This document shows positions 1,466-5,591 of a stretch of 64,000 bases of DNA, piece by piece (the first letter of the stretch is position 1; the number at the start of each line of letters is the position of its first letter). This DNA comes from Candidatus Bathyarchaeota archaeon (GTDB lineage Archaea; Thermoproteota; Bathyarchaeia; Bathyarchaeales; Bathycorpusculaceae). The position numbers and the translations under genes are program-made. The DNA is taken from positions 128,001 to 192,000 of the forward strand of contig CAVYHV010000009.1 in assembly GCA_963768425.1 (NCBI GenBank), written 5' to 3'. Under the pieces are notes generated by a model. The model had not been told where the DNA came from, made no database searches, and saw only the letters and a list, made by a program, of their open reading frames with translations.

Positions 1466-2413
1466 TTACGGCCTGTAACCGCGCAGAACACAGAGTGCCA
1501 AGGCGGCAGCCGTCAAGTCTGCGGTGGTTCCAGGGTTGCATTTGTTCTGATTAGAGCGAAGTCTACGGTCGAAGCTTCTTAGCCTGGTTTTGCCCCGTGC
1601 CGTTTCTAGTCCGCCGAGATCCAGAACTGCTTTTGCACCGACCGAAACTTCTAACGCTTTTTCTTTCCCCATCTTACGCGCGATGAAAGTATCGGGGTGC
1701 ATGGATAGAATTTTTAGGAAAGTGTGAACGACAGCTGTGTTCAAAGGCTTATTTTTCAGCTGCTCCGACAAATACGGGTAAGCTAAATCAAAAGCGACCG
1801 AGTAGTTGTTGACCCATTCAGCGCAGATGTCGTCGTATGTCGACGCCAAACGGAAAACCTCAAACAGACTAACATTCTCCTTTAGCAGGCGCTCCTTTGA
1901 CTGCGGGTCCGTTACGTCAAGCTCAGGCGCCTTGTTCAAACCACTTGGATTGGCAATGTCCACCGCCTCGTAGAGGTGCACTGAATCCCAAGCCGTCGTT
2001 GCCTTAACTGTCCGGTCGATGTTTCTGCGCAAAATAGAAAAATCAAGCTGCAAATCTTCTCCTGTTGGAGTCATTCCCGCCGCAACAGCAATCGGCATAA
2101 ACAGCATTATAGTGCCGAGAATCGTGTTGCCGCCCCTCTGCCAATCGTTGACGTCTTTTGCGCAGGATTTTATGAGCTGTCCCAATTCAACTTTGTCGAT
2201 GTCCAGTCTGCCTTCTGCTACCTGTGTCCCTCGGTAGGCAGCTTCTTGTAAGCTCGGTCCTGCAGCGATGGCTGAAGCTAAAAAGTGCTGACAGGTAGTT
2301 CCCTCAAAGCTCGCCGCCAAGTTGATATTACCTGGTTTTTCTGCGCTGACTTCAAGCAGAATCGCCAATTGCAGGCTTTTTGATACATTTTGAACTTTAA
2401 CACTGTTATTCAA
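1466..2413 (-). CDS. citG: Triphosphoribosyl-dephospho-CoA synthase family protein (archaeal CitG homolog)
   Basis: LEVSAEKPGN, GNTILG, PDTFIARKMG and NPGTTADL motifs of the CitG/MdcB family. Confidence 0.85.
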   Translation of the reverse strand: MNNSVKVQNVSKSLQLAILLEVSAEKPGNINLAASFEGTTCQHFLASAIAAGPSLQEAAYRGTQVAEGRLDIDKVELGQLIKSCAKDVNDWQRGGNTILGTIMLFMPIAVAAGMTPTGEDLQLDFSILRRNIDRTVKATTAWDSVHLYEAVDIANPSGLNKAPELDVTDPQSKERLLKENVSLFEVFRLASTYDDICAEWVNNYSVAFDLAYPYLSEQLKNKPLNTAVVHTFLKILSMHPDTFIARKMGKEKALEVSVGAKAVLDLGGLETARGKTRLRSFDRRLRSNQNKCNPGTTADLTAAALALCVLRGYRP

Positions 2414-2488
2414 GGGAATGCATCAACGATATTGGCGCAAAGAAGGTTTATTAAACTTATTAGAAAACTACAAGCTGTGGTTTGTTTG

Positions 2489-3505
2489 ATGGCACGTGAA
2501 GGCGATCTGATCAAAGCAAAAAGTGGCGTGGTTTTTGACGTTAAAGGCTTGGTTCACCCCATTGACAAAATAGTTGCTTTTCCGCGTTTCATCCCTTCTC
2601 CGCAAGGCACTCGGCAGGGCAAAGAAGGGACATATGGCAAAGTCTACAGCCTTGGCGACCGATTTAAGTACCTCCAGGAAAATCACCCAAACCTAATTGT
2701 CTTCGATCCAGTGTTTGGCGAGACGATGTGCGAAGTCCCAGTTGACCAAGTAGCTCAACATTATAAGCCTGAGGAAAAACTCTGGGCATTACGAACCTCC
2801 AAAGACCTTACCGTGTTGGAGAGTAAGGCACTGCAGCTGGCGGAAACCCTCAAGAAAGAAGCAGGAATTCCATGGAGCAACATCGGTATTTCGGGCTCAA
2901 TAATGGCTGGGTTAACAACCGAGAAGTCAGATATTGACCCTCTCGTTTATGGCGAAGAGAACTGTAGAAAAGCATACGCTGCTCTTAAGACACTTCTTGG
3001 GCTTGGGCAATTGGGTTTCAAGCCTTACAACATGGAGGAGTTGCAGGAGCTTTTCGATTTCCGTTCGAAGGATTCTCAGATGAGCTTCGAAGACTTCGTG
3101 TTGGTCGAAAGCCGCAAAGCATTCCAAGGCAAATTCATGGGCACCGACTACTTCATCCGCTTCGTGAAAGACTGGCGCGAAGCCACCGAGCAATACGGAG
3201 ACGTGTGCTACAAAAACAGCGGCTACACAAAAATAACCGCCAAAATAGCCAGCAATATTGACTCTCTTTTCACGCCCTGCACCTATAAGCTACAAGACAC
3301 GCAAATTGTTGAAGGACCCAAATTGGCACCAATAGTTGAGATTGTTTCTTTTCGCGGCAGATTCTGTGAACAAGCAGAAAACGGCGAGTTGGTTGAGGCT
3401 CAGGGAAAAGTTGAGTTGGTCACAGACAATAAAACGGGGAGCGAACACTACCGTTTAATCCTTGGAAACAAGCCGTCAGACTACATGGTTCTTTCTCGAG
3501 CTTAG
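2489..3505 (+). CDS. Predicted nucleotidyltransferase, COG1665-like (paralog 1)
   Basis: Pol-beta motif GISGS-x-SDID, N-terminal REGD..FDVKG..HP and C-terminal SFRGRFCEQA..GE..G.VE. Start moved to ATG 2489 to avoid overlap with citG. Confidence 0.8.
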   Translation: MAREGDLIKAKSGVVFDVKGLVHPIDKIVAFPRFIPSPQGTRQGKEGTYGKVYSLGDRFKYLQENHPNLIVFDPVFGETMCEVPVDQVAQHYKPEEKLWALRTSKDLTVLESKALQLAETLKKEAGIPWSNIGISGSIMAGLTTEKSDIDPLVYGEENCRKAYAALKTLLGLGQLGFKPYNMEELQELFDFRSKDSQMSFEDFVLVESRKAFQGKFMGTDYFIRFVKDWREATEQYGDVCYKNSGYTKITAKIASNIDSLFTPCTYKLQDTQIVEGPKLAPIVEIVSFRGRFCEQAENGELVEAQGKVELVTDNKTGSEHYRLILGNKPSDYMVLSRA

Positions 3506-4578
3506 TGCTGCACTTTGAGGACTTGTTCGTAGTAACGTGGGCAATAAGTCAAAGTGACCTGGTGGAACTGTTCAGTTGGCGACATAACTTCTTCAAGATT
3601 CCCTTCGACTATGACTTTTTCATCTTTTTTTGCCTGCTGGCGGAACTCCTCCATGAAAGAGAAAATTCTCTGCACCTCATAGGCTTCTTTTGGACCGCTG
3701 ATAACTTCTAGAGGTTCAATGCCATAGATCGATGGAATAAACGGCGCCTCGTCGTCGGCTGTTACGAGCGCTTTAAGTTTAACCCAGCCACGCCGTGTTA
3801 TGCACGTTCGCGGGTCGTATTCTGATTTGATTTCGCTCCACGCCTTCACAGGTTCAAACTCAGCCTTAATTGTTCGCCCACTTGCTTTGTCATCGTATAA
3901 CCCATAAATCTGCTTTCTACGTTGATGCCAAACGAAATCTGGTACTGCAAAGTTTTTGAAACGCCAATCTTTCCCATCCATAGCATGATCAGATTCGAAC
4001 TCGTTATGAAAACCTGACTGTGGATCATCGTACATGGCTTCAAGGGTTTTTCGCATGATGGCGTTCTCTTTTTTGCCGTAAACAATCAAGTCTATATCTG
4101 AGTAATTGGGATGATGAAACCCGTGCAGCATGGAGCCAAAGACACCGAAATTCTCTGTTTTTAACCCTGAATTGCTGAGCGATATCATGAGCACCCGCTC
4201 CATCGCTGCCAGCAACTCATCAGTCGGCTCCGTCTCAAGCAACTGCTGTAGTCGCTCCTCAGGTTTTCTTGCTTCCACAATGGCGCCATCCTTCACTCCG
4301 ACAAGATTCAGCCCCAGCATCTCATGGAAAACCTGGTACTGCGGATACTTTTTCATGACAAGTTTCATGCCTTCGTCATTGTAGAATTTAAAGTACAGCT
4401 GCCCTTTGCCTGTCCGCGGCGCTCTGGGGTCTTTGGACTCAAAAATCTTTGATGAAGCGTACTCGGCATCGCAGATGTAGGCGCCTGGCGGATGCGAGTA
4501 GCCGAAGACACGAAAGATCAAGCCCTCGGCGGTTTCTATGGCGTCGCGATCCCGCAGTCCTAGGCTATCACTGGCCAA
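3502..4578 (-). CDS. Predicted nucleotidyltransferase, COG1665-like (paralog 2)
   Basis: [15 protein letters not shown]-terminal [17 protein letters not shown] and C-terminal EEFRQQA..DE..EGNLE. Confidence 0.8.
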
Positions 4579-5591
4579 ATGAATTCTTCCTCTGACGTAG
4601 CGGTTCCGACAACAACTTGATAATAAACCTCGCTTGAAGATGTGGATTCGACCCGCTCAAGCTTGCCAGATACCCTGATAGTGCTGCCGCACTTTGCAAC
4701 GTTTCGATATAGTCCAATGTTCGAAACAACCTGCGAAGGTACCTTGTCTAATTCAAGTTCAGACTGGTCATCTAGGGGTTTGTAGCTTGAAATCCTATAA
4801 GCTGCGGGGCGATACATTGTTTCGGTGTCGTCGCTGACGACCGCTTCAAATCTCACTGGATCAAGCGGGACAAAGCGGTAAGCGCCATACTTTTCCTTGA
4901 TTTGTTCTGGTTTTTTTGTGGCATTGTACATGAAGATTTTTCCCTGGTACCTCCCTTGGAACTTTCTCGCGGCTTCAATGCGGTTGCCTACAATGTAGGT
5001 GAGTTTCCCAACGTTAACAAGCCTTGCAATTGCTTCCTCTACCATGCGGAAGTTTTCGGTTCCGTAGACGACGAAGTCAATGTCAGATTCGGGCGCGTGC
5101 ATCTGCAGGGCTATTGAACCGTGGATGCCCAGGTCGCAGAGGTTAACGCCGGATTCTTTGGAGACTAATTTTATGAGGTCAAGTGCCATTTGTTGCAGTT
5201 TATCCCGTTGCGGCAGGTTGGTAAGCCATACTAATCGGTCTTTGGGAACAAACACTCGCTCGATGCGATCCAACGGCGCTGTGATTAGTTCTTTGTTGCG
5301 AAAGGGGCAGAAGTAGATGTAGTCCGGAAAGTTTTTGCGAAAAGCCTCAATGAAAGTCTGGTAGTTCTTGGCCGTGTATAGTTTTTCTGCTCTGAACAGC
5401 TGATTACCGCTGAACTTCCAAGTGCGCTCCAGCATTTGCACATTGAAGAGTTCTTTTAACTGGGCTGGAATGTACTTTAAAAAAGCAAATACGCGGTCTT
5501 CCGGATGTTCATAGCCGAAAGTGTTAAGGATGAAGCCGTCTTTGGTCACAAAAGTGTCTCCATCCATAGGAACCCAAATATCTTCAGACAT
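4560..5591 (-). CDS. Predicted nucleotidyltransferase, COG1665-like (paralog 3)
   Basis: [15 protein letters not shown]-terminal DGD..GFI..FGYEHP and C-terminal GLYRNVA..G....GKLE. Confidence 0.8.

Follow-up and report, generated by a model that had tools for sequence, protein, structure and literature searches.

A CitG-like gene and three nucleotidyltransferase paralogues of Bathyarchaeia as a probable module for methanopterin-type cofactor synthesis

What would an archaeon make with a CitG-like enzyme whose locus, unlike those of the CitG plus CitX and MdcB plus MdcG systems, includes no acyl carrier protein (ACP), lyase or decarboxylase gene? This question is raised by a stretch of 64,000 nucleotides from a Candidatus Bathyarchaeota archaeon (assembly GCA_963768425.1, contig CAVYHV010000009.1, positions 128,001 to 192,000; hereafter the window), in which a CitG-like gene is found next to genes for three paralogous nucleotidyltransferases (NTases). 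CitG is known to move the ribosyl 5-triphosphate part of ATP to a hydroxyl group in the alpha configuration, after which CitX or MdcG uses another hydroxyl to displace the pyrophosphate. The genomic evidence presented here makes it probable that the four genes form a module that works in the synthesis of one-carbon cofactors of the methanopterin type, which derive from ribofuranosylaminobenzene 5'-phosphate (RFAP). Most likely, the module builds part of the side chain of such a cofactor.

The module comprises the following features, each given with its basis.

1466..2413, minus strand: CitG-like gene, 315 amino acids, TTG start (open reading frame and PF01874 match).
2414..2488, no strand: divergent intergenic region of 75 bp with TTTATTAA (reading of the sequence).
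2489..3505, plus strand: NTase-1, 338 amino acids from the ATG at 2489, clade NT1 (open reading frame, start placed by paralogue alignment).
3502..4578, minus strand: NTase-2, 358 amino acids, clade NT2 (open reading frame, PF01909 at 26.3 bits).
4560..5591, minus strand: NTase-3, 343 amino acids, clade NT3 (open reading frame).

A preliminary description of this DNA had placed citG and NTase-1 head to head, about 75 bp apart, with NTase-2 and NTase-3 both converging on NTase-1. The longest open frame of NTase-1 (2390-3505, plus strand, 371 amino acids) begins with a TTG at 2390, but its homologues and paralogues align from the ATG at 2489. With the start placed there, the gap to the citG start at 2413 is indeed the 75 bp from 2414 to 2488. 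The convergent arrangement holds for NTase-2, whose TAA stop codon on the reverse strand (3502-3504) overlaps the NTase-1 TAG (3503-3505) by two nucleotides. However, it does not hold for NTase-3, a gene that shares the strand of NTase-2, lies on its upstream side and has an overlap of 19 nucleotides with it (4560-4578). There is one CitG in the whole source genome (2.96 Mb, 33 contigs, 91% complete), and there are exactly these three NTases. The names given to close homologues assign this genome to Bathyarchaeia. Each of the four genes is covered in part by contigs (88-98% alike) of one metatranscriptome library, which is weak evidence, as carry-over of DNA is possible.

The intergenic region carries TTTATTAA at 2447-2454, some 38 nucleotides away from the start codons of both citG and NTase-1, and this box had earlier been proposed to serve both genes. 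Among 79 orthologous regions upstream of NTase-1, 26 contain the exact octamer behind a purine-rich stretch, and conservation of the motif AAAGAAGGTTTATTAAAC can be seen by eye across the regions compared. It is plausible from the sequences that TTTATTAA, together with the preceding stretch that resembles a transcription factor B recognition element (BRE), forms a bidirectional archaeal BRE/TATA element. The box stands as described, and its role as a shared promoter is that of a candidate.

How firmly are CitG and the NTases tied to each other? Linkage was counted in the best 80 loci from a species-level genome collection. These were retrieved with a three-row NTase alignment, are of Bathyarchaeia type by sequence and are nearly all titled Bathyarchaeia or Bathyarchaeota (a few have other titles), and hence the counts give a view of this lineage and of no other phylum. 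CitG is present in 68 of the 80 loci, where it is located no more than 100 bp from an NTase gene in 40 cases, 101-1200 bp away in 25 and further away in three. All three NTase clades are represented in 64 of the loci. Among 41 relatives, NTases are found in 37 and CitG in 35, and both are absent from G004, G028, G032 and G034. A separate observation is that a record titled as an Acidiferrales bacterium metagenome-assembled genome (MAG) carries, at locus L049, the full Bathyarchaeia-type block of CitG and three NTases, and this suggests that an archaeal contig was binned by mistake with a bacterial MAG.

A simpler version of the module is found in two genomes that named homologues identify as Sulfolobaceae. 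Here only one NTase is present, immediately before CitG, and both belong to an operon of overlapping genes in the order DUF1464 (PF07318), NTase, CitG and metallophosphoesterase (L088 197-3813 in genome G255). In G085 (L099 5012-6687), the NTase gene overlaps a phosphoesterase gene of the same family. This calcineurin-type metallophosphoesterase (PF14582/PF12850) thus overlaps CitG or NTase in two distant lineages, and both it and the DUF1464 protein are candidates for further members of the pathway. The conserved linkage (at most 1.2 kb in 65 of 80 loci), the Sulfolobaceae operon and the co-occurrence described below all support the earlier proposal that CitG and the NTases are functional partners.

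If the two act together, they should also be distributed together. The same set of 301 Thermoproteota genomes was searched for the NTase family (found in 147), CitG (141), RFAP synthase (TIGR00144; 110) and Mch (PF02289; 78), where either of the last two served as a marker for methanopterin. NTase and CitG are both present in 137 genomes and both missing from 150, with NTase alone in 10 and CitG alone in four, such that they vary together and not independently. Likewise, there are 152 marker-positive genomes, of which 143 have NTase and 139 have CitG, and 149 genomes without either marker, of which only four and two do. In four families everything is missing (f18, 0/43; f22, 0/17; f24, 0/25; f27, 0/20; 105 genomes sampled). 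These two-by-two counts overstate the statistical support because related genomes are not independent, and the concordance within mixed families is less easily explained away. NTase, CitG and RFAP synthase are carried by one and the same set of 12 of the 18 genomes in f31, and by the same single genome of 10 in f35.

The number of NTases appears to differ between lineages. Match counts per genome, which are not exact copy numbers, point to a single NTase in Sulfolobaceae and f19 and to a pair in f26, f31 and f41. For Bathyarchaeia and the other lineages with Mch they suggest three to five. Among the control genomes, CitG is found in Escherichia coli and in M. jannaschii, H. volcanii, S. acidocaldarius and M. 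acetivorans. RFAP synthase is present in the same four archaea, and CitD and CitX are found, among these named genomes, only in E. coli.

The genes that surround the module also point to one-carbon metabolism. When one representative per cluster of neighbours was scanned for the 80 loci, Mch was found near the block in 38, FwdB-like molybdopterin oxidoreductase and FwdD-like Molydop_binding proteins in 36 each, an ECF S component in 31, a FwdC-like GXGXG protein in 29 and MobB in 25, and Cdv/ESCRT genes were also among the conserved neighbours. In the source genome, Mch is located at positions 123907-124971 of the same contig, approximately 4.5 kb from citG. Elsewhere, CitG and RFAP synthase are separated by 4-10 kb in the f31 genomes, G122 and G302, and Mch directly adjoins an NTase in G166, G263 and G303 and CitG in G217 and G272.

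A natural fusion also connects the family to pterins. Protein P0181 (505 amino acids) joins a FolK-type HPPK domain (PF01288, E 3e-40, residues 8-134) to an NT1-like NTase (residues 174-504), and the pterin diphosphate that goes on to condense with RFAP is the product of HPPK. The fusion forms a single cluster at 90% and is found on two contigs, the longest being 59.6 kb. A search for long NTase fusions (647-2000 amino acids) returned none, which is weak evidence. A 769-amino-acid frame that joins an NTase to a peptidase M20 (L098 1850-4159, G161:C77), and whose NTase part ends at profile position 319, was set aside as a possible frameshift or assembly artefact in a MAG of some 300 contigs.

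Many of these neighbours would also be expected if the module served a different cofactor from the same pathway, for instance methanofuran or the molybdopterin dinucleotide of Fwd. FwdB/C/D-like genes are found in 29-36 and MobB in 25 of the 80 loci, and in G085 a MoaE gene precedes the NTase. However, NTase, CitG and RFAP synthase stay together in Sulfolobaceae and in other lineages without Mch, and the HPPK fusion points to the 6-hydroxymethylpterin branch. In addition, neither of these cofactors is known to have a unit derived from a ribosyl triphosphate that would require CitG. We therefore regard this explanation as improbable. The tracking of the markers, the Mch and Fwd-like neighbours and the HPPK fusion agree with the pterin connection that had been suggested at the outset, in preference to one with citrate lyase or malonate decarboxylase.

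There remains the question of whether the CitG-like protein is simply a CitG. It matches PF01874 over profile positions 3-283 of 284 (E 4.8e-66, 223.7 bits, cut-off 27), and its closest solved chain is 3h9p, a 'putative triphosphoribosyl-dephospho-CoA synthase' (E 1.6e-15). In contrast, the equivalog models TIGR03125, TIGR03132, NF002315 and NF007503 give just 23.5-48.7 bits, with cut-offs of 272-477, and cover only the C-terminal third. Similarly, a BLASTP alignment with E. coli CitG extends over just 65 C-terminal residues at 29% identity. By these comparisons, the protein is a clear PF01874 member that is distant from the bacterial CitG/MdcB equivalogs. Its usual partners are also missing, as searches of the genome (91% complete) for a CitD-type ACP, CitX and MdcG (PF06857, PF03802 and TIGR03135) gave no match at E<=0.01.

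These results bear on the possibility that the module is a true prosthetic-group system of the CitG/CitX type. In this case, CitG would make triphosphoribosyl-dephospho-CoA and the NTases would attach it to a carrier protein that has escaped recognition and that may be part of another one-carbon enzyme or of the formylmethanofuran dehydrogenase encoded nearby. The strong PF01874 membership would fit such a system, as would the frequent Fwd-like neighbours and the fact that CitG is known to work with phosphoribosyl transferases whose target is a serine of a protein. Yet there is no CitD-type ACP, CitX or MdcG in the genome, and the CitG-like protein falls far below every CitG/MdcB equivalog cut-off. 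Moreover, the distribution follows RFAP synthase, and Sulfolobaceae, which lack Mch in 10 of 10 sampled genomes, still keep the NTase-CitG operon. We found nothing in favour of a protein acceptor, which had been one of the options originally considered for the NTases, and a prosthetic-group system of this type seems improbable to us.

The NTases themselves are only loosely connected to described families. Against PF01909 they score 17.3 (NTase-1), 26.3 (NTase-2) and 19.2 bits (NTase-3), and only NTase-2 is above the cut-off of 21. A scan of NCBIfam gave nothing for NTase-2 and NTase-3 and a chance-level match to a SAM decarboxylase for NTase-1 (E 0.004), and among PDB sequences there were no phmmer hits and nothing meaningful in a profile search (best E 0.036). 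A profile search of 1.84 billion representative proteins recovered 1426 relatives at E<=0.001, of which 428 also reach E<=1e-30, and where the sources give them a name it is just 'predicted nucleotidyltransferase'.

The three proteins share 24-27% identity in pairs, and in the alignment NTase-3 is missing approximately 25 residues of the middle segment that NTase-1 and NTase-2 have. A tree of 227 family members, drawn from the window and the fetched loci, consists of three tight and mutually distant clades, NT1 (81 members), NT2 (69) and NT3 (66), along with a rare fourth clade of four members. The strong divergence and ancient paralogy that were first described are thus borne out, and the duplication is, on this sequence evidence, old. 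The catalytic motif that had been seen in all three genes (G..GS/SDxD, comprising G145, G148, S149, D161 and D163 in NTase-2 numbering) is kept in 227/227 members, including the three in the window. Because this metal-binding motif is retained throughout, all three paralogues look catalytically competent. Positions H29, P30, Y285, S307 and E329 are near-universal, and the exceptions are the Sulfolobaceae and G085 copies.

An AlphaFold2 model of NTase-2 that was built from a 119-row alignment is a confident one (pLDDT 96.2, pTM 0.92), whereas a single-sequence model (pLDDT 33) was unusable. Foldseek found nothing in the PDB at E<=0.001. An exhaustive structural aligner matched residues 118-246 to the Pol-beta NTase core, with TUT7 at Z 7.8 (root-mean-square deviation 3.3, 92 residues) and further matches to Tut1, TdT, GLD-2, Pol X and MenT1. 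It also matched residues 259-358 to an OB fold of the SSB/MCM type with Z about 7. All of these Z scores are below 8, a range that possibly reflects only a common arrangement. No structural assignment was obtained for residues 1-117 from structure comparison. The model suggests that the NTases are a three-domain family with an N-terminal domain, a Pol-beta core and an OB fold. A complex prediction for NTase-2 with NTase-3 scored 0.00 in both runs with controls not run, and has no bearing on a heteromer either way.

The best structural matches, which are terminal uridylyltransferases, Pol X enzymes and OB folds of the SSB/MCM type, could be taken to mean that the NTases act on RNA or DNA, for example in tailing, repair or tRNA modification, and that their linkage to CitG and one-carbon genes does not reflect a shared pathway. 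We consider this very unlikely. A nucleic-acid housekeeping enzyme would hardly track RFAP synthase or Mch so closely (143/152 against 4/149), nor would one expect none of the 105 genomes sampled from f18, f22, f24 and f27 to have it, or to find it fused to HPPK, and the supporting Z scores are all below 8. The known nucleic-acid enzymes of this class (TUT7, Tut1, GLD-2, Trf4, Pol X, MenT) share the G[GS]...DxD motif and, as the structural matches suggest, the core fold with the NTases. However, the NTases add an N-terminal domain with conserved G26, H29 and P30 and a C-terminal OB fold with conserved E329, their sequence similarity to these enzymes is marginal, and their genomic context is one of cofactor metabolism.

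Nor are the NTases detectably related to CitX, although a CitX/MdcG-like transferase was the role originally envisaged for them. There is no PF03802 match at E<=0.01, and hhalign gives a probability of 0.8% when the 119-sequence family profile is compared with E. coli CitX. Therefore, the term 'CitX/MdcG-like' can describe an analogy of chemistry but not homology. The broader idea of an archaeal CitG-transferase pathway retains its functional partnership and its link to pterins, and gains no support for homology to CitX or for a protein acceptor.

What could a CitG-like enzyme and a Pol-beta-type enzyme contribute to methanopterin? This molecule carries an alpha-ribofuranosyl-5-phosphate on the 5-hydroxyl of its ribitol, joined by a phosphodiester to 2-hydroxyglutarate. 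Starting from how the genes are ordered, conserved and distributed together, and from the fold class and the retained motif, we infer a scheme whose substrates, order of steps and products are conditional. The CitG-like enzyme would use ATP as the ribosyl donor, as CitG does, releasing adenine, and would attach an alpha-ribofuranosyl 5-triphosphate to a pterin intermediate, at the free terminal hydroxyl of its aminophenyl-ribitol portion. One or more NTases would then carry out a phosphoryl transfer of the Pol-beta type. Here a hydroxyl acceptor, which would be (S)-2-hydroxyglutarate in canonical methanopterin, would attack the alpha-phosphate and displace pyrophosphate to give a phosphodiester between ribose-5-phosphate and the hydroxy acid. 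This would amount to the chemistry of CitX/MdcG carried out by an unrelated NTase family on a small molecule instead of an ACP. The ribitol 5-hydroxyl of the RFAP-derived intermediate would have to be freed first, a step that would suit the phosphoesterase found in Sulfolobaceae and G085. Perhaps the three paralogues form a hetero-oligomer, or they may serve different acceptors or different steps of a more elaborate tail. That the chemistry proceeds exactly in this way, with a CitG-like step followed by an NTase phosphodiester step, is a tentative proposal that we hold to be doubtful in its particulars.

Several observations weigh against a role of the module in methanopterin synthesis or against this scheme. 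Work with cell extracts by White in 1996 reportedly named phosphoribosyl pyrophosphate, and not ATP, as the donor of the second ribose-phosphate. The NTase core is nearest to RNA and DNA enzymes and is followed by an SSB/MCM-like OB fold, an architecture that, though matched at Z below 8, would suit a nucleic-acid substrate. The overstatement of the two-by-two support by the non-independence of related genomes also counts here. There are 10 genomes with NTase but without a detected CitG, four of which are 97-100% complete (G084, G033, G076 and G092). There are also nine of the 152 marker-positive genomes without NTase, including G034 (98% complete) and G230 (97%). Of the NTase-positive genomes, 41 show no RFAP synthase at E<=1e-10, but Mch is present in 37 of these. 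In the source genome itself, the RFAP-synthase-like genes are in broken frames. Finally, Haloferax has matches for CitG, an RFAP-like protein and Mch, and haloarchaea are argued to use folate and to be without methanopterin-specific enzymes (PMC8305020).

The broken genes of the source genome are located on the same contig outside of the window (G000:C9:74837-78336, locus L097 8837-12336), where RFAP-synthase-like pieces flank a DUF1464 gene. All pieces are broken, with adjacent pieces in different frames and with in-frame TGA codons, which indicates either pseudogenisation or indel errors in the assembly.

How does the module compare with known systems? It resembles CitG plus CitX and MdcB plus MdcG in that a PF01874 enzyme is genetically coupled to a partner of the nucleotidyltransferase type. 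The proposed logic would also be alike, wherein an ATP-derived alpha-ribosyl 5-triphosphate is placed on a hydroxyl before pyrophosphate is displaced and a phosphodiester is formed. It differs in that its NTases are a separate three-domain family without detectable CitX similarity, that there are three paralogous NTases instead of one, and that a small-molecule intermediate of the cofactor is the proposed acceptor.

The known enzymes of methanopterin biosynthesis include the RFAP synthase MptG, MptA/B/D/E, the MJ0301-type dihydropteroate synthase, MptN and the MJ0619 methylase. The module shares with them its phyletic range in Thermoproteota, its neighbourhoods and, in one case, a family fusion to HPPK. 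To our knowledge, none of the known enzymes is CitG-like or of the Pol-beta type, and we know of no genes assigned to the steps that follow the condensation of the pterin with RFAP, namely the addition of the second ribose-phosphate and of hydroxyglutarate. A comparable joining reaction is that of CofC/CofD in coenzyme F420 synthesis, where a nucleotidyl-activated phosphate likewise joins a hydroxy acid to the cofactor via a phosphodiester, although the protein families are unrelated. In bacteria, orf7 of Methylobacterium is said to be CitG-like.

Our search, which left older subscription literature outside its reach, turned up no paper in which CitG or this NTase family is connected with methanopterin. 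None of the titles found on (tetrahydro)methanopterin biosynthesis concerns the tail steps, searches for COG1665 or COG1767 yielded no paper, and those for DUF1464 yielded only unrelated work. The new elements presented here are the table of co-occurrence of four genes, the tree of three clades whose members all keep the motif, the fusion to HPPK, the negative comparison with CitX and the conserved candidate motif for a bidirectional promoter.

The remainder of the window has its own features of interest. A gene for a small membrane protein (558..1118, minus strand, open reading frame) is located downstream of citG on the same strand. It matched no Pfam family, relatives of it (cluster 23) are found downstream of citG in nine of the 80 loci, and its membership in the citG unit is uncertain. 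Just upstream of the block, positions 123-518 on the plus strand encode a cysteine-rich protein of 131 amino acids that matched no Pfam or NCBIfam family.

A surface-glycosylation island of lower guanine-plus-cytosine content (0.34-0.42) occupies positions 6529-30800. It includes genes for an AglJ-like GT2 and another GT2, a polysaccharide pyruvyl transferase, two GT4 proteins, RmlD, an epimerase and a C-methyltransferase, as well as two split DUF1616 genes. Further downstream are a B12-binding radical SAM protein (34687-36267), a 1293-amino-acid protein of PQQ-like beta-propeller repeats (39150-43031) and then large surface-type proteins with filamin and DUF2341 domains. Sequencing runs that match the genome do so with shares of sampled words of at most 0.27, and a soil or peat habitat rests on the labels of the records.

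In its boldest form, the proposal would be that CitG-like enzymes and the three-domain NTases are the long-missing builders of the alpha-ribosyl-5-phosphate-hydroxyglutarate tail, both in methanopterin and in the related cofactors of Sulfolobales and Bathyarchaeia. In that case, the CitG/CitX style of chemistry would have arisen two times, each time on another NTase scaffold. Together, the three or four paralogues would constitute a hetero-oligomeric or stepwise machine for tailoring the tail, with their copy number setting the tail of each lineage. We offer this as a speculative possibility that may well prove wrong.

Methanopterin is the one-carbon carrier in methanogenesis, in the anaerobic oxidation of methane, in archaeal carbon fixation by the Wood-Ljungdahl pathway and in bacterial methylotrophy. 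The conserved gene set provides concrete and testable candidates for pathway steps that lack a known enzyme, and Sulfolobus acidocaldarius, a genetically tractable organism, has a single-copy version of the module. If the proposed role is correct, then a major cofactor pathway would be completed and the role of the 'orphan' CitG homologues of archaea would be explained. The genes would also serve as genomic markers for the capacity to make the cofactor, and they may offer additional targets for inhibitors of methanogens.

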